A stretch of DNA of 64,000 bases from positions 15,954,842 through 16,018,841 of the forward strand of contig JARFYF010000029.1 of assembly GCA_030265395.1 (NCBI GenBank), in the 5' to 3' direction. The first letter of the stretch is position 1; every line of letters starts with the position of its first letter. The position numbers were made by a program, and so were the translations under genes. Below, one piece after another: positions 20,945 to 62,694 of this stretch. The stretch is from Rhina ancylostomus (taxonomy: Eukaryota). Under the pieces are notes generated by a model. It saw nothing but the letters and a program-made list of their open reading frames with translations, was not told the DNA's origin and did not search any database.

Positions 20945-22100
20945 AAGGTCAACAGTGGATGCAATCTCACTGGCTCTCCACTCAGCTTCGGAGCACCTAG
21001 ACAACAGCAAAACATATGTCAGGCTGTTGTTTGTCGATTACAACTCAGCGTTCAAAATCATCATCCCCTCAGTACTTATCAACAAGCTTCAAACCCTGGG
21101 CCTCAGTATTTCCCTCTGCAACCAGATCCTCAACTTCCTTATAGGGAGACCACAGTCAGTGCGGATCAGTAGTAACATCTCCTCCTCGCTGACGATCAAC
21201 ACAGGCGCATCTCAAGGACGTGTGCTTAGGCCACTGCTCTACTCTCTTTACACTCATGACTGTATGGCTAGGCACAGATTAAACGTTATCTATAAGTTTG
21301 CTGATGACATTGTTGTTGGCAGAATCTCAGATGGCAATGAGGAGGCTTACAGGAGTGAGATAGATTGGCTGGTTGAGTGGTGTCGTAACAACAACCTTGC
21401 ACTCAATATCAGCAAGACCAAGGAACTGATTGTGGACCAGAAAGGGAAAGTTGGGAGAACACACACCAGTCTTCATAGAGGGGTCAGCAGCGAAAAGGAT
21501 GAACAGCTTCAAGTCCCTGGGCGTCAACATCTCAGAGGATCCATCCGGGGCACAACACATTGATGCATTCATGAAGGCGGCACGCCTGTGGATCTACTTC
21601 ATTAGGAGTTTGGAGAGATTTGATACATCACCAAAAACTCTTGCAAATTTCTACAGATGTAGGATGGAGAGCATTCTGATTGATTGGGTGGAATGGAGGC
21701 TCCAATGTGCAGGATCAAAAGAGGCTGCAGAGGGTTGTAGATTCAGTCAGCTCCACCACAGAAACAACCCTCACCGTCATTGAGGACATCTTCAAGAGGT
21801 GGTGCTTCAAGGCGGCAGCATCCATCATTAAAGACCCTCGCCACTCGGGACACACCCTCTTCACGTTGTTACCATCGGGTATGAGGTACAGGAGCCTGGA
21901 GACCCACACTCAATGTTTCAGGAACAGCTTCTTCCCCTCCACCATTAGATTTCTGAACCCCCGAACACTAACTACCTCATTATTCCTCTTTGCACTATTT
22001 AGCTTTGTAACTTATAGTAATTTTTATGCCTTGCACTGTACTTCTGCCACAAAATAACAAATTTCACAACATATGTCAGTAATAATAAAACTGGTTCTGA
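20945..22100 (+). mobile_element. Rex1/Babar LINE, 5-prime-truncated, frameshifted RT plus 3-prime UTR
   Basis: [11 protein letters not shown]...[13 protein letters not shown]...[21 protein letters not shown]...KFADD...[28 protein letters not shown]; ends AATAAAACTGGTTCTGA. Possible TSD GAAAACA (20938-20944 and 22099-22105). Confidence 0.92.
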
Positions 22101-26000: not shown

Positions 26001-27219
26001 GTTTTATTGTTCTTGCAATTCACATGAAACTAAAGAACATCTCATTAAGTTTGCAGAGCCATTGTTTATCAGTTTGATTCCTCAACACAGAGTGAGACAC
26101 TTGCTGTACATTTCAAAATATAAATAAATTTATATTTTGTCTTCAATATTTTGGTTAACAAATCGAACTATGGAAGAAGTTCAGGAAGGAAAAGAAAACA
26201 CAGGAAATACATGGCACCTACAAAGAATGCTCACTCACGGGTCAAGGTGCTCCTGTGTGCTGTTAACCCAGAAGGTATGCTTGCATAGGTTGCACTTTAA
26301 AAGGAAGCTATCAATTACATAATGTTACAGGTCACAAACTGACATACAGATCAAGTTTCCAACTACACCGCGCTGACATTAAGTTTGAAGGTCACAGTCA
26401 CTCTGAACTTTCATATTTCAGGATTATATAAAGCTGCTCCTGTGGATATCAATAATACTGTAAACAGCAATTTCATCATATGCATAAATCATATTTGTGC
26501 TGACTCCTTTAGGAAACAGCATTCTCCAAGGAACAACATTGACAGCATGATAACTTATGAAAGAAGAGAAAGAATTACATTTTTCGCAAAATCAATTGAG
26601 TCAGATGACATCAAGCATCATATTGATTTTTATAATCAATCTCACCACCCATACCAACAAATGGATTTCCACTTATGATCGGTATATTACTCTACAGCTA
26701 AAAAGACTGAAATGCCATAGAAATATGTGCTGTGGTGTCACAAACTGAGAGATAAATACTCCATCCAACCTGTCATTCCTGCACCTCCTTGGGGATTGAT
26801 CCCAATGTTTTCACAGAGGTTTAATGTTCACAAATATCCTTTCAGGAACCAAAACCAACACGATCCAAAATGAGATCTGTGACTTCATTCTTCTATGCCC
26901 AGCTCCTACCAACAGGATTGTGTTTCACTTTATCCTCTCCCACTTAGTTATATGTCTAATGCCCTTGTTGCCAGCCAGAGGCCTGAAACATGGAATTGAC
27001 TGTGATGTAATATTGAGTCAATCTTTAATTTGTTGAATGTATTGGAACATAGCAGCACATTTTGAAAATCAAGGGAGTTATGAATGGCACTGCTAGCAAA
27101 ATGTCCAATGTTGAGATACTTTGTATTATGCAATAACTGCATTTTGAATGTCTAGCCGAAAGAGGAATGAATTAAAAAGAGGTTGGCAAGAGTGGCAAAA
27201 ATGGATCTGCATTCCAGTT

Positions 27220-27420
27220 CTTGGCATGGTTGAAATCTCCCAATACAATGAAAAATGTATCGGGGTGTGCAGTCTGCTGTTCACTAATGGGATCATACAG
27301 TTCCATCAGGGCCTCTTTAGAATTAGCACTAGGAGGGATATACACCGCCCCCACAATGATGCTTGTGAAATCCCTCGACAGGTAATATGGCCGACACTTT
27401 AATAATAAAAACTCCACTAG
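27220..27420 (-). mobile_element. Rex1/Babar LINE APE-endonuclease fragment, inverted relative to the adjacent 3-prime part
   Basis: VEFLLLKCRPYYLSRDFTSIIVGAVYIPPSANSKEALMELYDPISEQQTAHPDTFFIVLGDFNHA. Confidence 0.88.
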
Positions 27421-28010
27421 TGCTGAGCACTGCATCACCATCTGGTATGGGAACTGTACAGTTCCCATGTATTGGAATATAGCAGCACATTTTGAAAATG
27501 TGCTCAAGTCCCTGCAGAGAATAGTGAGAGCAGCAGAGATTACAGGTGTTGCTTTATCCTCTATTGCAGACATATATATGGACCGGTGTGTCAGAAAGGC
27601 CACAAACATTATGTCTACCCTTCCCACCACCTCTTTGTACCCTTGCCATCCGGAAGGAGGCTCCAGAGCATCTGCGCAAGATCCACCAGACTGTGCAACA
27701 GCTTTTTCCCACAAGCCATTAGAACTATGAACTCCCTCAAAATGCTGCTCCCTATCCCTCCATCCAACACTAAAAGGATATAATGCGTACAAAAATGCAC
27801 CAGTACTTTAAGTGTCTAATGGCTGCTTGGACACCTGCTGCATCAGTATGTTCATTTTAAGCTGCTTTTATTTGAGTTGCTTTTTAATGCTGTTGTCTTT
27901 GTCTTATTTTCCTTAATGTGTCCTGCACCCTGATCTGTGGAGTGCGGTATTCCACTCCTATGCATGCTGAATGTGTATATGGCAGTGACAATAAAATCAA
28001 TTCTGATTCA
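27421..28010 (+). mobile_element. Rex1/Babar LINE C-terminal region and 3-prime UTR
   Basis: CITIWYGNCT...KSLQRIVRAAE...RCVRKATNI...HHLFVPLPSGRRLQSI...RLCNSFFPQAIR; ends AATAAAATCAATTCTGATTC. Confidence 0.88.
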
Positions 28011-45015: not shown

Positions 45016-45185
45016 CTTTTCTTGGTTTTCCTTGTTGTTATAGCAAAGATTCCCAATCAAATGGATCAGATGTGCTTTAAATCCAACAGCAGGATGAGTG
45101 GCGTGATTGGCGAATGATAAAGACTGGGATGCAGTAAAAATATTTCTGCTTTGTTTTCCTGCAAGGTGGGTCTCATACAAAAGTT
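45016..45185 (-). CDS. ATXN10: Ataxin-10 internal coding exon (equivalent to exon 9), 170 bp, phase 1 to phase 0; start of the conserved C-terminal Ataxin-10 domain
   Basis: Acceptor TTTCCCATTTCAG|A, donor GAAAAG|GTGAGA. Translates LLYETHLAGKQSRNIFTASQSLSFANHATHPAVGFKAHLIHLIGNLCYNNKENQEK, compare human GFKSHLIRLIGNLCYKNKDNQDK. Confidence 0.97.
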
Positions 45186-48383: not shown

Positions 48384-48492
48384 TAACAGTAGTCTCCACC
48401 AGAGCAGGTGAGTTCTGCAAATAGCTGAAATTTTCATGGTTTGAGGTTGTTTCACAGAGGATATCAAGAAGCCTGATCACAATGAGAGCCTC
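48384..48492 (-). CDS. ATXN10: Ataxin-10 internal coding exon (equivalent to exon 8), 109 bp, phase 0 to phase 1
   Basis: Acceptor TTTCTTTTGACATAG|G, donor TGTTA|GTAAGT. Translates EALIVIRLLDILCETTSNHENFSYLQNSPALVETTV, compare human EALATIRLLDVLCEMTVNTELLGYLQVFPGLLERVI. Confidence 0.96.
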
Positions 48493-51690: not shown

Positions 51691-52601
51691 TCTTCCTGAT
51701 TTTCCTTTATCTATCCAACACTTCAAAAAATTAACAGATTCATAAATATTATTTTCCTTCCATAAAATGCATTGATTCTATTCCATGACGTTATGAGTTT
51801 GTAAGCACCCTACTAACATGTTATGGTATACTTGCATTACTCTGATACAAGTTTTTCTTGAAAATGCAGAGATAAATTACTTTATGCATAAATCTAATTA
51901 ACTATCAGCTTATTTTGCTGTGATACCAAGCCAGTAACACAGTACAGTTCTTAACTATAATATTAAGTTCAGCTGTCAATGGAATGATTTGTTTTTGCAT
52001 CACCGGGGGTTCCTGTCTTGCTATTTAAAATATATATTTATATTATCCCAATATGGTGCCCTTACGTTTATAGCACCGAACCAACAAACTGAAGCTCATG
52101 AATTAAAATATCACCTCTGCAAGTTAAACTCACAAGCATTGGATATTTTCTAGTGCTGACCCATAAATTAACAAACAAATGTAACCAGTTAAGGGGAGCT
52201 GTTATCCTACCTGATCTGGCTTGCATACAAACCTTCTCACACACTATATGATTGACTCTTAAAAGCACTCAGGAATCTTAAGGAAGTGTTACAAATATTG
52301 CTTTACTCAAATATAAAAATATGACTGGGATAAAAACTATAGAAAGGTTCATTAGTTATTTTGTATGCCTCCAGTGTTCATACTGGAAATATGGCAATTA
52401 GCTACAATGATCAGCTGAGTTGTACAAAAATAAAATGATAGACAAACATTTCCCTCGCTCCCATACCTGGGACTGAAACAGTAAGTACTTCCAAATTCTA
52501 TGCACGATGTCAATAGGACTAAGAAATTAAACATTTCTTTTTCAGCCTGGGATGATGACAGTAAATGCCACCACTAGGAAATGGGCAATTCTCCACCCTA
52601 C

Positions 52602-52776
52602 CTCATCTTCTGCATCAGGAGCAGAGGCATATTTCAACACTGCCATGCATTTCTCTATGAAGCAGGCTGCCAAAAATTGCATTAGTCTGACAGGAACCGC
52701 TAGATCGTCACTACCAGCTTGAGACTCCTGATTCTTGTCACTCAGCTTTGCGGATATTAGTTCCAAGATGATAATC
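52602..52776 (-). CDS. ATXN10: Ataxin-10 internal coding exon (equivalent to exon 7), 175 bp, phase 2 to phase 0
   Basis: Acceptor CTTTTGTTGCAG|G, donor GATGAG|GTAGGG. Translates IIILELISAKLSDKNQESQAGSDDLAVPVRLMQFLAACFIEKCMAVLKYASAPDAEDE, compare human VTLLDLMIAKIT...FVDQCKTVLKLASEEPPDDE. Confidence 0.94.
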
Positions 52777-54221
52777 CTGCAACAAAAGATCATAGGCACC
52801 AGTGTTGCTACTGTGCAAAAATTTCACAATACTGAAATTTATAAAAAAATCATTTCAAAATTAGTGTCAATAAAATATATATTAAGGGGTAGGGGATGCA
52901 GATGACAGACTACATGAATATACCAGAAAACACTCTTCTACACTTGAGCAGGGTACCACGTCATACAGCGATCTTGTGTCGATCCTTGTTGTCACGGTCA
53001 CTCTAGCTCTTCCCAAGCCGCCACATACAATGCCAGAATCAGTGTCAAAGGTCACAGGAGTGTGCCTGGTAATTCAGATCCTTGAACTGTTGGTAAATTA
53101 TGCTTCACTGCAGAATGTTCTAATTAATAATTATTGACCCAGATTTTGTAGCAATAATGATGGAGAAACTATCGGAGGTCGCTGCTGTTACACCATGAAA
53201 GTTACATCAAGGATTTTTGCCATTATGTAATAAGACTGACAGTAACTTTGGGATGTCCATGTATACATTGTTTAATACAGCGATTCAGCAATCCTACAGT
53301 TTGGCAATTTTGCAATCTTCTCCACTGCACTCAAGGGAAAGTGATGAAACGTGAATATTCTGGGTATTTCTGAATTAGTTATGCTTTCTCACAAAGCCCA
53401 AGTTTTTAAAATCATGCACTAAGCTATAATTATTGCTTAGCAAACATTTTAGCCCCAAAGATACTTTTGTTTGTACATTAATTTATTCAGACAAATATTA
53501 AGATAATTACTTTTTTAAAAAAAAGCTTATGACGTTTTAGTTTCTACCGTAACTGTTTGAGTACCTTCCTTTTTTATATAAAAAAAGCACTCTGTAAGAT
53601 GTTTAAAATATTAACTAAGAATTTCCTTTCTACTTTGCTGTATCGAAGAATTCTTTAACCTTCAGCCAGTTTAATGACATCACTGCTGCTGGATCAAAGA
53701 GATCCACTGAATTGTTGCCCGATGTCATTTGGTGTTGGAAGTGAAGAAGTCTGTGCAACAGAACTCACTGGATCTTTAGAAATTCAAATGAGTGGTCAGT
53801 ACCATGATTTCACCATTGGTCATAAAGTCCAGACCACTGTTCTAGGGATACAGCTTCTTGCATCCAATGAATAACAACAAAAACACAGAATTTCCATGCT
53901 AATCTGGTGGCTGGCTATCAATTTCTGGAGTGGTTTGTCCTGTCTGTTACCCACTTAGAACAAAGGTATTAAATTACACATTCCAAGGCCAGCCCAATTC
54001 AAGCAGTGAGTTTCCCTGAAGGCACCAAGGTATACCTCTAACCATGATACGTTAACAGCACACTTTTTCCAATAAACCAGGAATAGCTTGCAAGGATTTG
54101 ATCATTTTGTTTATATAAAATGTAGTTAAAGTGACAATGATATTTAGAGCAATAATGTTTTGAATAGCTAAGACCAAAGATTTAAGAAACAATGACAATC
54201 AAAACTACATTTTTAACCTAC

Positions 54222-54302
54222 CTTTCTTGATTGTTCCATTTTGTGTACATAGCAGACACTAAATCTGGACATTTCAGAAACTGCTCTGTTACAATAAGAA
54301 AC
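54222..54302 (-). CDS. ATXN10: Ataxin-10 internal coding exon (equivalent to exon 6), 81 bp, phase 2 to phase 2
   Basis: Acceptor TTCTCTCTCCAG|G, donor GAAAG|GTAGGT. Translates FLIVTEQFLKCPDLVSAMYTKWNNQE(R), matching human LIITDLFLKSPELVQAMFPKLNNQER. In frame with flanking exons; too short for the ORF track. Confidence 0.95.
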
Positions 54303-55299
54303 CTGGAGAGAGAATATTAAACTTCTGTTCAGCAACACATTTATCAATGATATTCCTTTACTACAGCCAAGGCAGTAGTACTCAATTCAATACAATGCCT
54401 TTCCTGATAAACACTTAATGTACATTGCTAAAACAAATACAGACACAAAGTTAAAAAAAGTGTTAATAATGTCCTTTATCTCTTGGAAAATCTTTTGTAA
54501 AGTTTGATTTTCAAAGTTCATAGAAATTCAAAGTAATTTAAAAATGAAATAAAACTGATTTGTTGGCCCCTAAAATTCCACCTTTGCTTCAAATTTTCTG
54601 ACCAAATGAATGTTTAAAATATAGCCATTTGGCTGGGGAAGCAATAATAATTTGATGTCAAGGTTGTGCTGCCACTAGAATATGTTTGGGCAGGTGTGAC
54701 ATGAGAAGTAGGACTTTCATTAATTTGCAGGGTTTTGAAGGTGTATGATGGGGGTTTCATATGGGTGCATGGGTTTTATTTTTAAGGTACTTGACAGTAG
54801 GAGTGCTTCATCTGCAAACAGTAGTAAATGTACAAGTTGGAATAATTTTGAATATCAAAATCTTTAATTAAAATATATTTGTTATCACCAAGCTTCTCCT
54901 ACAATGCTTTCATTTAAAGTCCAACAATAATTAATAGCCTTTTCTGTTTACAAAAATAGCTCCAGGTTCATTCAATCATTACCATATATACAGCCCATCA
55001 CTCCCTGCCCCTTTGGGAAGTTCACGATCTGGGTAAATTTGCAGGCCCACATCTTCTAATACTCTCTATTTAGGGAGATGAAATTATGTCCTTTTGAGTC
55101 CAGTATTTCCATCACATCACAAATGCAGAGTTTGTATTGGAAACTGCAGGATGTGGCATGAATTAGCCACAATTGCTTGGAATGAGTCAGAAGCCATGCA
55201 TTCCAGGTTCATCTGAGCAGTCCATGGAACGCAACTTGCAGAAGTCTTGCAGATCTCAGTTACCACTACCTTTAAAAATCTTAGTTGTTTTCAAAAGTT

Positions 55300-55720
55300 T
55301 TATTTATTGGACATGGACACTACTGGTAAGGCCAGCTTTTATTGCCCATTTCCAACTGCCCTCAAGGTGGGGGTGTAGAGTCACTTTCTTGATCCACTGT
55401 GAGTCCTTCACCATAAGAGTTGCTGAACCGTGGGCAAGGAGTTCCAGGAAATGGACGCAGTTATGAAGAAGAAACATTTCCAAGTCAGGATGGTATGTTA
55501 ATGGAACAGGAACTTTCAAGTAGTGGCATTCATACACCTCTTGATCTTTTTGGTGGTAGAGGCTGCAAGCCTTGGAGAGATGCTATTGGAGAAGCCTTGG
55601 TAAGCAACTATAGTGCATTTTCTACCAGTACACATTATAGCCATGGTGTGCAAATGGGGGGGGGGGGGGTGAATATTTAGGGTGCTGGATGGGTGCCAGT
55701 CATGCAGACTGCTTGGTCTG
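55300..55720 (-). mobile_element. CR1-group LINE 3-prime end
   Basis: CTGGTAAGGCCAGCTTTTATTGCCCAT...GGAGTTCCAGGA...ATTTCCAAGTCAGGATGGT, the recalled elasmobranch CR1-like terminus. Confidence 0.65.
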
Positions 55721-56834
55721 TTATTCTACCTATTCATATTAAATATTTATTGGTAGAGGCTGGAGTATTGATCCAGTCTCTTGGGGGACAACAGCACATT
55801 AAACAAGTAACAGAAGTTAACTGGTCTTCTCTACTGGTAAACTGGATGCCTTAGCTATTAAGCAATAGCTCTCCTGAACCACAAGGGAAGACAATGCATT
55901 TCTATTACTGGATTACTGGTAAGTAATTCTGATGATTTCTCATTGGGATGGTATAATAACTTGTAAGCAAGTTGTAAGTTGTGCAAGTTAAATTGATCAA
56001 AATGGAAAAAAACTGTTTACATCTATTGTTCAAAATAAATTGATTGGAACTGTATTATCTACAGTATTATTTAAATACTGGCCCATGCCAGTATTTAAAC
56101 TGAATAATTACTAATTATAAAAGAAAGCATAACAACTCACTCATTGATGGTTGTGTACTAGCAAACAGTTGAGCAGAAGTATGAAAAAAAAATCTAACTT
56201 TGGAAACAACCTTAAACACTCTGGAGGTACAATTTTACATGTACCGATTAAAAGACTTTGTATAGAGAAAAAAGCAACAATACAGTTTAGAGGAATATGG
56301 GCCAAATGGTACTAGCTCAGGTAGACATCTTGGTTAGCACTGATGAGTTGAGCCAAAGGACACTGTACAACTCTTTGATACTTCTCAGTTCACTATTTTG
56401 TAATGAATGGTTTGATGTACTGAATTTGGAGTACCTAGAGTCAGTACCACACTGCTAAGTATCTACACCTCCCTTCGTGTACTGAACCAGAACTTGCTTG
56501 GAAGTACAGAAACACAAGAACTAGAAGCAGAAGGCAGCCAATCAATGCCTTTATTTCCTTTATATGGAATTCTCAGGGGGAAAATCAGATGGATCATCCA
56601 TGTAGCCTCATCTTGAGCATTTACAACCAGAGTTTTTTTCCAGATGTTTCACGAGAAACAAACATTGACCTTCTGGACCTCCTGCAAGAAGCATAATAAT
56701 GTGAAAAGCACTGCCATTAGACTGGACCTCATCATCAAGAATCAAGGCAGCATTTACCAGCAAGTCAACAGCAGTAGATCCACAAAAGGTCAAAGATATA
56801 CTTACCATATAGGTCAGTGACAATTGCAGGCAGA

Positions 56835-57400
56835 TTTGTAGAGCACATAAACAGCCCCTTTGGCCCAACTCATCCATGCTGACCATAATGCCAATATACA
56901 CTAATCCCATTTGCCTGCATTAGATCCATATCCCTCTACTCCTTTCCTATCCAAACACTTGTCCAAATGCCTTTTNNNNNNNNNNTCCACCCTCTCACTT
57001 TAAACCTATTCACACTAGTTTTAAACTTCCCTACCCTAGGAAAAAGACTGTCTACCATGAATATGCCCCTCATGATTTTATAAACCTCTAATAAGAACAC
57101 CCCTCAGCCTCCTACATTCCAGTAAGAATAAACTCCAATCCCTCCTTGTAACAATAGCCCTCCACGCCTAGTAACACCTTGGTAAATCTCTTCAACATTC
57201 TTTCTAACACTGCCACATCCTTCCAGAACTGTACAGCCTAACATATGTTTTGTACTAATAACAATGTGACATCAATTCCTGTACTCATTGCCTTGGCCAA
57301 TGAAGGCAAACAATCAACCTCCCTCACTACCTTATCCAACTGAGTTGCCATTTTCAGGGAGCTATAAATTTGCACCCCAAGGTTCCCCTGTACATCAAAT
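56835..57400 (-). mobile_element. CR1 (HER1-like) LINE 3-prime portion
   Basis: ACAGCCCCTTTGGCCCAACTCATCCATGCTGACC...CTAATCCCATTTGCCTGCATTAGATCCATATCCCTCT...CCCTCATGATTTTATAAACCTCT...CCCCTCAGCCTCCT. Confidence 0.85.
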
Positions 57401-57544
57401 TGTAGGAGCATACTCCTGACGAGTTCCGGCTCTTCATGTATAAAAATTGTTCACACACATCTGGGAATGCATCTATCATAGTGCAATGCCAGTTCCTCAT
57501 AAATCTTATCAGAATTTTATCAGATTGGCATCTCCCTTCCCAAT

Positions 57545-57900
57545 GACCCGACCCCCTCGTCCTTCACACTCCCTCCCACAGCTCGGCCCTTCCCAGCTCC
57601 CGCCCGCTCACCTCCCGGCGTCGCCTGGAGCTCCACAGCCCGTGTGCCAAGCCGGCCGGCCGCAGAAGAAGGGCGAGCCGCCGCCTGTGGACTAGCACAC
57701 CGCAGCGTAACGGCGCCCACAGCAGCGCCATCTTAGGCAACGGCCCGCTGCATGGTGGGAACGGCGCTCCTCCACGTGACTCCGGGGCTGAGAGCTGCGG
57801 GGAGGGCGAGTGCTCGCAGCAGCAGCAGCCCTGTGCTGGGAGGCTGCAGACTGGTGTCAAATGCAGCATGGTAGCTGGGAGATGTTCTTCACGGCGTTGT
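57545..57900 (-). promoter_or_regulatory. Isolated CpG island and candidate internal promoter in ATXN10 intron 5
   Basis: Only strongly GC- and CpG-rich stretch in the window. YY1-type AAGATGGCG (57726-57734, minus), E-box GTCACGTGG (CACGTG at 57773-57778), RFX-like half-site GTTGCCTAA (57733-57741), GC box GGGCGGGAG (about 57597-57605). Confidence 0.7.
57612..57731 (-). CDS. Candidate first coding exon (120 bp, phase 0) encoding MALLWAPLRCGVLVHRRRLALLLRPAGLAHGLWSSRRRRE, a mitochondrial-presequence-like peptide
   Basis: ATG in strong context (AAGATGG) within the CpG island; strong donor GGAG|GTGAGC; 9 Arg and one acidic residue in 40 aa. The downstream partner exon is not established. Confidence 0.5.
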
Positions 57901-57920
57901 TTCTGGGACAAATAACACAC

Positions 57921-58490
57921 AGCATTATTACTGGTCGAAGCATTACAACTGGGAGAATAAAACTTAGAACATTATGACTGGGAGAAAAATGTATAAAACA
58001 TTATTGCTGGGTACAGTGGTAAGAGTATTATAACTGCTTGAAATAATAGATCATTATAAATGGGAAATAATGTTTAGAACATTATTGCTGGGTATAGTAT
58101 TAAGTATTATTACTGCTAGAAATAATAGACGCTTACAACTGGGAGAATGATGCTTAAAACACTATTACTGGGAGAAAAGTGTTTGAACATTGTTGGGTAT
58201 GGTAGTAAGAGTATTATTACTGCTAGAAATAATTGGGAGAGAGATACTCAGATCAAAATTGCTAGCAGCAATAATGTTCAGAGCATATAAGAAACTACTC
58301 AGCATTATGACTGGTGAAATTTCTGATTGTCAACAATAATACATCACTATTGATAAATTACACACAGCGTAATTACTGAGAAAAATACTAATACTGCTAC
58401 TAGAAGGTATTATTACTGACAGTAATAATTAAGACCATTATTACTGGTAGCAACACGATGTAGAACAACAGTAGTGACAGTATTGCAGTA
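57921..58490. repeat. Degenerate AT-rich minisatellite, about 25-30 bp unit, with higher-order structure
   Basis: Repeated core CATTATTACTGG variants, e.g. cattatgactgggagaaaaatgtataaaa, cattattgctgggtacagtggtaagag, tattattactgctagaaataatagac. Confidence 0.85.
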
Positions 58491-59039
58491 TTTCTTCAAG
58501 GCGGTTTTGAGCNNNNNNNNNNNNNNNNNNNNNNNNNNNNNNNNNNNNNNNNNNNNNNNNNNNNNNNNNNNNNNNNNNNNNNNNNNNNNNNNNNNNNNNN
58601 NNNNNNNNNNNNATCATTTAGTCATTGTTTTATGAAGATTACGTTATAACATTTTAAACAATAGATTTCTGTTTCTGAGCCCTGATGCAGTATAGAATTC
58701 CAAAAGTCACAGCTCTGAGGTAAAAGCAATACATACACGGTTGGTGATAATAAACAAGGAATTCTGGAGGAATAGAATGCCCATTTTTTAAATATAATGG
58801 TAGCTCAATACAACCAAACCAACAAGGGCTTAATAAAAGAACAGTGCCAGTATGTTTAATAGGCAAGTAATGTGTCCTAGACAAGTACTTTGTAGTAGGC
58901 TATTTGCCAGAGCTGGCACAATACATGCTTTGTACCATTTTAAGGAAATGGAGTTGAGGACTATATAATAACTTTAAAAATTGCTGATCACATTGATGCC
59001 AAAAGGCTATCAGCACATTGTAAAATACAGAAGAATTGA

Positions 59040-60250
59040 TCCTGAAATCAAGCATTTACAAGGCTCAATTGCAGAGGAGTTTGGTTATCAGTGTCACCAG
59101 TTCTGGAGCACAGATCTTCAGATGTGATCTGTTTCCATTAGCCTTTGTTGTCCAATGCTCTTGGCCCTTTCTTGATATCATGTGCAGTGAATCAAATTGG
59201 TTTTAAGATCAACTTCTGTCTTAGTGTAGTTCTCATGAGGAAGCCAAAAAGGATCATACACATTAGTCTCTGGCTATAGTCTCATCTTGAGCATTTACTA
59301 GCTAGGCCCTACCATCAATAAGAATAGGAATGTTCTTGGATCCTCCTCCTCCTATTCGTGATTTGATGTTCACTACCAGGTGAGGCCAGACTACAGAACT
59401 TTGATCTAATCTATTGGTTGTGGGAATGCTTAACTGTCTACTGCATCCTATTTTTCCCCCATATGTAGTCCTCATTTTTAATGTGTGCCTGGTGATGCTC
59501 CTAGCATGATCTTCTGCACTCCACATTGAATTAGGTTGATCCCCTGGCCAGAGAGTACTGGTGAAGTAAGAGACATACTAGTGTCACAAAATTGTGGTGT
59601 AAATTTTTGCTAATAAGCATCTCATAGATATTCAGTGTTGAACTGCTCAAACCTGTTCTGACTCTATCCGATTTAGCACAATGGCAGTGCCACACAATAT
59701 GATGGAGGGAATCTTCATTATTAAGGTTGGACTGTCTCCACAAAAGTGGGTGGTCACTTTTACCAATGTTATCATAGACAGATGCATTTGTCATGGGTAG
59801 ATTGGCAAGGATAAGATCATGAAAGCTTAACCGTCATTCACAACCTGCTCAGACCCAGTCTGGCAGCGATATCCATCAAGAGTTAGCTAGTTTAAATATC
59901 AGAGTATATTCAGCGCCTTTACTACTTTTTCAATTCATCACTGAAAGGAAGTGAGTAATCAAGGTTTCTTTTTCTATGTTTGACATAAAACAATGCATCT
60001 TTTTGGATTCTGAAGTCAATGTTGAGGATTCCCAGAGTTATTCCCTCCCATCTGTACACTACTCCACTCACACACCTCTCCACTCATCCCCATCCTTCCT
60101 TTGGTGGGCCTCTCCTGACAGCGAGATAGGACATATCCCAACACTGTGAAGGAGTCTGGTATGTTGTTTGTAAGGTACAATTCTGTGAGGCTTTTGCAAT
60201 TTTTCAATACCAGTCCCATATATCTGTGAAGTAGACTTAGCAGCTTCAAC
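59040..60250 (-). mobile_element. Degenerate CR1-group LINE ORF2 fragment (endonuclease and linker)
   Basis: ASVYDNIGKSDH, VWHCHCAKSDRVRT and GGGGSKNIPILIDG blocks. Confidence 0.65.
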
Positions 60251-61429
60251 TTATATTAGTACCTGATTGATAGGGATTGTTGTGTGGTGGGTCACTTGCT
60301 CTGGAATTCTCACTACACAAACTGTTCAGAAGCATTCTTTGTAGGGGAGTCATTTCTTCCCCTTGCAGTGGCAGCATCCCTCATGCTGCTGATTGCAGAT
60401 GACACTGTACATGCTACCAACAAACATGGCATTAATCATGAAAAAATGTTTCTGATGCTGTGCAACAATTGGATGTTGAATGAGTGGAAACCTTTTCCAT
60501 TGATGAATAAGTTATCGAGTGAAGCCCTGTGAGCACACAAATGCAGACAAAGACCATACTCAAGGTATGCCAGAAATTTACCTCCTCCTTGCTGAAAACT
60601 GATGAAAATAAAGTCATCCCTCTAAGCAGAATGCCTGTGTGACCACTTGGTTACCTGGCAGAGAACTGTTGCAGTTTTTCAAATGATCTGGCGGCAAGGA
60701 AGTTGACAGCCAAGACAATCTTTATCTCTGTGGAGAGAATAAGGCCAGAGGTCTTCTCTGAGAAAGTCAAATTTCCTCTCCTTAAGAGGTCCAGAAAGGA
60801 AATGGTATTTACGAAGAGGCTCCACTTTGCTGGGCATGTGTACTATGTGATCCAAGGCCCTACTTCTGCAGGTAATATCTCCTGTTGTTGTGACTACTGA
60901 GGCCCCCATTTCACAAGTATTTGCCCACAAGTAAGTGCAGGATAACTCAAATCACAGAGTTTTAGCAGAAACTGGTGATGGTATTGGAACAACCTACAGC
61001 GAGTTCTGCTACTGCCATTCAGATGTCCTTCAAATCCAAGGCATTATTACAAAGTAGTGTGATGCACTCTCAGTTGAACTATATCCAAAAGCCCATGACA
61101 TCCTGTTAAAGCCAGAAATTGATGTTATACCCATTTTTGAGGTCACCTGCTGCATGAATCATATCAGGAAACCCTTTTCTGTGCAGAGGTGAATAGTACC
61201 CGAGTCAATTTTGTGATGGGTGATGGTTCCAGTGAAAATGGGCACAATCACTTTATGTACTACATAGATGTTATGAGCTGTGTGTGCATAAAAATCAGGT
61301 GCAATTGTTCCAATTTCTGGGGATTGTATCCTCTTCTCTTATATGCTGTTTTTAAATCCTTGCAGCCTCTCTCAATTTTAAATCCTGGGAGCCTTTCTCT
61401 CCCGTATTGTTTCTAATACCCAGAGCCTC

Positions 61430-62035
61430 TCGCTCTCTTAGGGACAAGAATGATTCACTTTTACTCCAGTTTTGTGCATTGTGAAGTGGCTAATGAGACC
61501 AATGTGGGAACTGTAGTCTCTTTCATAGAATGGCAGATGGGTGGGTAGTTTCTGAGGTAATCTACTCCTTCTATCACATATGCAGAGCCTCTGTGCTCCC
61601 AATGCATGGTCTTAATGATCTCAATATCACTTCAAATGATCCATCTCTACTTTGAGTGGTCATGGGCCTTAGATTCCCAGGAGTCAGTGGGGATGTTGCA
61701 TTTCTTCAAGGAGTCTTTCAATACATAACTGAATCTTTTTATCTGTCCTCCTGGTATTCTTTAGTCATGACAAAGCACAGAATAGATTGCCCATTTCCAG
61801 GCATGTGGACGACATGGCCTATCCAACATGGCTGACTGTGGGCATCAACAGTCTCCCTCTCCCCTGCACTGCCAAGACTACAACACCTCTTTTTTGTAGC
61901 ACCTCTATAACATTTTCTTTCTTTCACTGTTGTCTTCTTGCTGGGTTTTCTTGGGGAAAAAAGGGTTGCAAGTCCCAGTGTGCCTGTCTGTTTTTGAATC
62001 TGCAGAATGGCCTGCAAAATGGTTTTATGTGACAT
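61430..62035 (-). mobile_element. RTE-clade LINE 3-prime fragment
   Basis: CWIGHVVHMP (compare LRWAGHVVRMP) and RFSYVLKDSLKKCNIPTDSWESKAHD (compare RFKD.LK.SLKKC.I..DSWE..A.DR). Confidence 0.75.
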
Positions 62036-62337
62036 TTACTCCAGCAAGGAGTAATGGCTTCAATGAAGAAGGACAAGTTAGTAAAAGAGAAATAAAATAT
62101 GCTGATTTAGGAACTTCACCTTGATGAACAATAAAAAGTTCCAGAGAATGCTCAGAATCCTGTAACTAAAACCCACAAGGAAATTGGCTACTAATCAGTG
62201 CAGTACATATTAAGACCATAGAGAAATGGACTTAATAATGCCAAAGTTTTAGGGGATAGAATTGTAAGCTGCACACCGAGTCTTCTTGCTCAGGTGATTG
62301 AGAGAAAATGTTAAATGTTTCTTAAAAAAATACATAC

Positions 62338-62505
62338 GCCCAGTCCAGTTCTGGCTCTTTCCTGCAGATTTTGACAACAGTTTTAGCCAGTTCAATCCCT
62401 TTGGTGTGGTTGAGTAGATCCGCTGTTCTCTCACCATTAAGGCAGGTAAACAGAACCATGCAGCAATAGGTAATAGTTTTCTTATCCAAATGATTCAGAC
62501 AATTC
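62338..62505 (-). CDS. ATXN10: Ataxin-10 internal coding exon (equivalent to human exon 5), 168 bp, phase 2 to phase 2
   Basis: Acceptor TCTTTCCTAAG|G, donor TGGGC|GTATGT. Translates NCLNHLDKKTITYCCMVLFTCLNGERTADLLNHTKGIELAKTVVKICRKEPELDW, matching human SCLNHPDKKIVAYSSMILFTSLNHERM...HPESEWP as recalled. Confidence 0.95.
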
Positions 62506-62694
62506 CTTAGGAAAGATTGAAAACACAAATTTTAGATGCAGGTCCAAGAAAATCAATTAAAACCACATGCCCTACTTGCCAAATAAATCTCAAATTTATC
62601 AGCTGTAATATAAACCGGTCCAAGTTTTAAAAATGAGTAAAAGAAATAGCAACAGAGCAGAGACAACCATTTCATTCATATAAATTCACTGGAA

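Follow-up and report, generated by a model that had tools for sequence, protein, structure and literature searches.

The window, by which we mean the whole 64 kb stretch of DNA that was analysed, contains exons 5–9 of ATXN10 on the minus strand and a small CpG-rich island between two of them. The exon numbers are those of the preliminary description, which we take to follow the numbering of the human gene.

62338..62505, minus strand: ATXN10 exon 5, 168 nt (tblastn and splice sites)
54222..54302, minus strand: ATXN10 exon 6, 81 nt (tblastn)
52602..52776, minus strand: ATXN10 exon 7, 175 nt (tblastn)
48384..48492, minus strand: ATXN10 exon 8, 109 nt, phase-0 acceptor (tblastn)
45016..45185, minus strand: ATXN10 exon 9, 170 nt (tblastn)

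These exons form an intact open frame that shares 225 of 234 residues with ataxin-10 of Pristis pectinata (XP_051885969.1). Among 18 shark and ray ATXN10 proteins, the Pristis protein is the closest (90.9% identity over the tblastn matches), followed by a runner-up at 83.7%; the DNA thus probably stems from a relative of the sawfishes. The apparent frameshift at the start of exon 5 in the tblastn output is an exon-boundary effect, and a single AG at 62507-62506 gives an in-frame exon of 168 nt. No ATXN10 exon beyond exon 9 was detected by tblastn in positions 1-45015 of the window, which leaves an intron 9 of more than 45 kb or a following exon hidden in a gap. A four-residue ATXN10 look-alike (AFPD) near 57470 is absent from the tblastn matches and was judged to be a chance resemblance.

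The island is located between exon 5 (62505-62338) and exon 6 (54302-54222), which places it in intron 5. The 64 kb were scanned for CpG content in 425 segments of 300 bp at a step of 150. GC above 0.45 combined with a CpG observed/expected ratio above 0.55 was found in three overlapping segments (57451-58050). The best segment, 57601-57900, has a GC content of 0.68 and a CpG ratio of 0.80, while the ratio of the entire window is 0.21. CpG islands are commonly defined by a length of at least 200 bp, GC above 50% and a CpG ratio above 0.6; 57601-57900 qualifies under this rule and, at less than 500 bp, falls short of the stricter size rule. GC values of 0.68-0.76 extend over 57550-57849, and the island is therefore just ~300–350 bp long. 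The preliminary description had reported the sole CpG island of the 64 kb in the middle of a gene, and 57550-57850 is indeed the sole CpG-rich stretch. Its elements are as follows, with gene names according to the assignment argued below.

57550..57850, unstranded: small CpG island assigned to the ABCB7 promoter, 5´ UTR, exon 1 and start of intron 1 (base composition)
57612..57731, minus strand: 40 codons for the N-terminal targeting-sequence region, phase 0, assigned to the coding part of ABCB7 exon 1 (ABCB7 identity)
57606..57611, minus strand: splice donor GTGAGC after codon 40 (sequence; ABCB7 proteins versus read-through)
57726..57734, minus strand: predicted YY1-consensus site over the ATG, single copy in the window
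57773..57778, unstranded: candidate E-box CACGTG (sequence; 4 copies in the window)

The open reading frame at 57731-57612 (minus strand) encodes a 40-residue peptide with nine arginines and one acidic residue. Its start context is CCTAAG/ATGGCG and its donor context is CGGGAG/GTGAGC in minus-strand letters, which agrees with the start, length, composition and GAG/GTGAGC donor given earlier. The stretch AAGATGGCG at 57734-57726 occurs once in the window and matches the YY1 consensus CGCCATNTT as given in a passage of PMC1904287; the YY1 site proposed to overlap the ATG thus stands as a predicted consensus match. The proposed upstream E-box is present at 57773-57778, as one of four CACGTG hexamers in the whole window. 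An RFX-like half-site was also proposed; its hexamer is present (GTTGCC, 57741-57736), but with 20 copies in the window it is not rare and carries no weight.

The exon as part of ABCB7

In a protein search with the peptide, the sole match among 242 candidates (71-2000 aa) was ray ABCB7, with an E value of 1.9e-7 over the full query, and all five members of the matched cluster are named ABCB7 and come from rays. The peptide aligns gaplessly from Met1 with the N-terminus of Pristis pectinata ABCB7 (P0004; XP_051878104.1), sharing 37 of 40 residues, and is 78-80% identical to the ABCB7 proteins of four stingrays and devil rays. The agreement with Pristis is in line with the 225 of 234 residues conserved in the ATXN10 exons, as expected for an orthologue under normal constraint. 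Past residue 40, the five ABCB7 proteins read E/TAQWW, whereas the window and the genomic read-through frame P0024 read E/VSG, which indicates that exon 1 of ABCB7 has its conserved end at this donor. The island exon is therefore almost certainly exon 1 of ABCB7. Both the gene and this part of it were already known and the peptide is nothing new; the identity fully explains why the composition resembles a presequence and why the promoter is of the housekeeping type.

When 1.84 billion representatives were searched in full with HMMER, two matched, P0024 and P0023. The former, a 147-residue 'protein' on a 935-bp contig, is informative as a gene-caller read-through from ABCB7 exon 1 into intron 1 and no real protein; the latter is a repeat-derived frame lacking the matched stretch and was judged a chance match. 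Pfam contained no family for P0001 or P0024. None of 142 candidate proteins matched the 135-residue read-through frame with which intron 1 of relatives was sought. A 20-nt pattern searched in metagenome contigs occurred at five loci, where agreement with the window never extended beyond 20-28 nt, and these were likewise judged to be chance.

The preliminary description had favoured an undescribed ATXN10 isoform with an internal promoter, or the first exon of a nested gene on the same strand. The first proposal is not supported, since the exon belongs to ABCB7 and since, in a set of 38 ATXN10 proteins that includes isoforms, none matches the peptide at E ≤ 1 or begins with an ABCB7-like or presequence-like segment. 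Among the literature matches listed, no ataxin-10 isoform from an alternative promoter was found. A native exon that arose de novo behind an internal ATXN10 promoter, merely resembling a presequence, would be compatible with the position and the splice phase; convergence cannot, however, produce identity to ABCB7 at 37 of 40 positions from residue 1 along with the same exon end, and this explanation is refuted.

ABCB7 is the mitochondrial iron-sulfur cluster transporter orthologous to Atm1, and the peptide is presumably the cleavable targeting sequence that takes this half-transporter to the inner membrane. The arginine-rich, acid-poor composition (9 R and 1 D/E in 40 residues) is equal to that of Pristis ABCB7, while the first 40 residues of Pristis ATXN10 contain three arginines and five acidic residues. 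The maximal hydrophobic moment is 0.61 for the peptide, 0.59 for Pristis ABCB7 and 0.67 for the ATXN10 N-terminus, and does not separate the peptide from the latter; the targeting claim accordingly rests on orthology and composition. Human ABCB7 has an N-terminal targeting sequence with a TargetP-2.0 likelihood of 0.9634, according to a passage of PMC7761412. The earlier reading of a housekeeping-type first exon with a mitochondrial presequence thus appears correct, judged from the sequence, with ABCB7 exon 1 as its almost certain identity.

Compared with Pristis ABCB7, which it resembles in the 40 residues, the arginine and acidic counts, the hydrophobic moment and the exon end before TAQWW, the window differs in having exon 1 alone, which the assembly places in the intron of another gene. 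None of 33 tiles of ABCB7 revealed a further exon in the 64 kb, whereas 12 of 12 ATXN10 control tiles matched, and the next-best match of full-length ABCB7 by tblastn on the window had an E value of just 1.8. The ABC_membrane (residues 107-380) and ABC_tran (residues 445-594) domains of P0004 are not in the window. The second proposal, a nested gene, is thus not supported within the window.

These results also bear on whether a functional ABCB7 could start here and be interleaved with ATXN10, its same-strand intron 1 spanning ATXN10 exons 6-9 for more than 57 kb and its exon 2 lying beyond the window. The exon appears fully intact, and Hypanus and Hemitrygon (two of five rays) have ABCB7 and ATXN10 on a contig of equal size; accession numbers 1,165 and 1,299 apart weakly suggest that the two genes are distant from each other on it. 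In the other three rays, however, chromosome-scale contigs of unequal size carry the two genes, namely in Mobula birostris, M. hypostoma and Pristis, the last being the closest relative found (103.0 versus 50.9 Mb). The 57.6 kb downstream contain no ABCB7 exon, and interleaving would need a translocation that broke inside one gene and left both working. We consider such an arrangement hardly credible. Our literature search, in which subscription journals were largely outside coverage, found no report linking or fusing ABCB7 and ATXN10 among the matches listed; nine papers mention both genes, one or two times each, and none has a title that points to linkage or fusion. ABCB7 is essential in mouse and worm, as stated in a part of PMC3122190, and the species must therefore have a working exon 1 joined to the rest of ABCB7.

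Gaps, repeats and sequencing-run contigs around the island

The window is composed of 16 contigs separated by 15 gaps, and the island lies on a short contig with a gap on either side, which the preliminary description had not mentioned.

56986..58512, unstranded: contig bearing the island, 1,527 bp, between the 10-N and 100-N gaps
58513..58612, unstranded: 100-N scaffold gap on the upstream side of the exon (window letters)
56976..56985, unstranded: 10-N gap in a very high-copy repeat on the downstream side, candidate misjoin (window letters and contig depth)
56842..57290, minus strand: LINE-like repeat of high copy number, 3´ part, interrupted by the 10-N gap, with an approximate upper end (depth and loose ends)
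57865..58449, unstranded: degenerate AT-rich minisatellite, period ~79 and 29, upstream of the promoter toward the 100-N gap (repeat analysis)

The repeat beside the 10-N gap, which we take to be the 3´ end of a CR1-group LINE, reaches a depth, summed over contigs, of 25,000-99,000 in each of the four sequencing runs compared below (bins 56544-57217). Loose ends in its tandem tail fall at 56842-56849, and weak copies of the repeat occur elsewhere in the window. According to a passage of PMC13343379, CR1-group elements account for 22-34% of the genome in sharks and rays. A bird genome study, PMC7757076, names repeats and GC-rich sequence as causes of assembly gaps.

Several other features surround the island. 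The minisatellite at 57865-58449 has no second copy in the window and is hardly matched in organism C, one of the organisms behind the runs. An 11-nt tandem duplication at 57502-57523, ~90-110 nt past the donor, is located at a sharp switch from GC-rich to AT-rich sequence and may mark a junction. A 22-nt direct repeat (21/22) at 56603-56624 and 59277-59298, 2.7 kb apart, flanks the contig of the island; both copies are in dispersed-repeat sequence by contig depth, so it is probably no target-site duplication. A 57-nt inverted pair (74%) at 56303-56359 and 56857-56913 consists of opposite-orientation fragments of one high-copy repeat. Farther away, long open frames at 27175-27807 (minus strand) and 21430-22054 (plus strand) are presumably retroelement remnants, by their appearance.

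Region 52500-62600 was compared with the contigs of four (X1-X4) out of five runs; the four represent at most three samples, X3 and X4 being one. The likeness was set to 86, and repeats crowded the lists of joints and loose ends. X1 shows no difference from the window in its eight pieces listed; it may be the source of the assembly and is therefore not independent. One of its contigs matches 57648-58512 with no differences and stops exactly where the 100-N gap begins. The depth of this contig (6.4) alone explains three bins (4.63, 6.4 and 5.39) and is 1.15 times the median of nine flank depths; this fits a single copy, though contig depth is no copy number, and we did not count it as evidence. 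Among the 32 pieces listed (with 63,059 more) and the 15 joints listed (with 303 more), none bridges either gap with 31 letters on each side, which proves nothing.

Two contigs of organism C depart from the window on the two sides of the island. The first (X4, record 29) matches 57283-57418 and continues with 283 letters unlike the window; the second (X3, record 22) matches upward from 58718 and has 280 unlike letters below. Both fit the island being an insertion relative to organism C with a junction inside the small contig. Should both derive from one locus, 57104-57418 would be native intron of ATXN10 and the junction with the ABCB7 piece would lie inside the small contig, which would then be chimeric or contain a real insertion. 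The organism C runs also break relative to the window at 53344-53352, 54697-54819 and 56308-56376, three places within 4 kb; such breaks are therefore not rare, and one near the exon could be chance. By our estimate, the organism C breaks shift the odds a few-fold without overturning the reading of a misjoin. At 54698-54818 (121 bases), organism B has at least 415 and organism C 438 other letters, and X1 record 2, a contig of the same species, spans the site with no differences. By the letters compared, ATXN10 intron 5 has probably undergone a lineage-specific deletion or replacement at this site.

Placement of the exon in ATXN10 intron 5

We infer that the true promoter and exon 1 of ABCB7 were misplaced into ATXN10 intron 5 by an assembly error, with a probability of about 0.78; the odds of placement given here are our judgement and were not computed. 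Several observations argue for a misjoin. The peptide matches ABCB7 with the identity expected of an orthologue, and its donor coincides with the exon end seen in P0024; an essential ABCB7 needs this exon attached to the rest of the gene; the 1,527-bp contig has a gap on both sides, with the repeat below and the minisatellite above; the window contains no other ABCB7 exon while ATXN10 exons 5–9 are intact; the two genes are on different contigs in three of five rays, including Pristis; and none of the 38 ATXN10 proteins matches the peptide. Three observations oppose it, namely the departure of the organism C contigs on both sides of the island, the shared equal-sized contig in the other two rays, and the end of the GC-rich stretch ~85 nt past the donor, beside the 11-nt duplication.

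Under a misjoin, ABCB7 exon 1 would in its normal place join ABCB7 exon 2 on splicing and provide the mitochondrial targeting sequence. One false link would have attached the ABCB7 piece to the neighbouring ATXN10 contig on its lower side. The simplest place for it is the 10-N gap, which is flanked on both sides by contigs that run out in one high-copy repeat; alternatively, a chimeric join may lie at ~57419-57555. The 100-N gap above, joined in the ordinary way, would then hide the true missing part of intron 5, so that a single assembly error would suffice. Repeat-mediated scaffold misjoins in short-read drafts share the short gap-bounded contig, the high-copy repeat end and the GC-rich first exon. 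They differ in that the misjoin is here deduced from its surroundings; PMC7757076, in the part cited, treats gaps of a bird genome.

A real, recent duplication of the ABCB7 piece into intron 5 is, taken as a whole, unlikely. Its simpler form, which we rate as improbable, is a lineage-specific copy of 1.1-1.5 kb of ABCB7 promoter and exon 1, with the original kept and the copy idle. Such a copy may be neutral or at most a leaky promoter, and its transcripts would mostly reach exon 6 out of frame and decay. The two organism C contigs, which leave the window at 57418 and 58718 and so flank the island, speak for such a copy, as does the abrupt end of the GC-rich intron start beside a short tandem duplication; the peptide also carries L21 and L28, which are found in none of the five other ray ABCB7 proteins. 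Against this, both sides end in assembly gaps, one of them within a high-copy repeat, and no target-site duplication was found at the candidate junctions, one boundary of which would lie in or near a gap. Start codon, reading frame, donor and YY1 site are all preserved, divergence from Pristis is near that of ATXN10, and the window breaks from organism C at the three further places within 4 kb.

The splice frames bear on a second form of duplication, in which the copy has been co-opted. Joined to exon 6, the island exon reaches a stop after 79 residues, to exon 7 after 52 and to exon 9 after 79; joined to exons 8 and 9, it stays open for 133 residues. The preliminary description had given the exon as phase 0, fitting exon 8 directly and stopping at 79 residues when joined to exon 6, and its arithmetic is correct. 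Exon 8 is the only in-frame acceptor among the four downstream exons tested. The fit is real, but any phase-0 acceptor would accommodate a phase-0 exon. If used, it would yield a mitochondria-targeted C-terminal ataxin-10 that keeps PF09759, which is at residues 388-484 of Pristis ATXN10 and thus downstream of the start of exon 8 at residue 317. Such a fusion would, however, need a real duplication as well as the skipping of exons 6 and 7, the nearer acceptors, and an N-terminus of this kind occurs in none of the 38 ATXN10 proteins; we hold it to be very improbable.

Chimeric genes arise by duplication of a 5´ exon that encodes an organelle-targeting peptide (exon shuffling). The locus resembles them in its phase-0 targeting exon, its own promoter and a compatible acceptor downstream, exon 8. 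Unlike them, the arrangement is not conserved in any relative examined and is known here from genomic sequence alone. If the exon 8 fusion were true, it would show a gene arising through exon shuffling at the very beginning of the process, a rare and datable gain of an organelle address through the first exon of another gene.

If instead the ABCB7 exon was misplaced by the assembly, as we favour, the start codon and the targeting exon would be missing from the genome's ABCB7 model, and intron 5 of ATXN10 would contain sequence foreign to it, which would matter just as an assembly flag. The lesson is to run a protein search on any orphan exon in a CpG island flanked by gaps before a new isoform is proposed.
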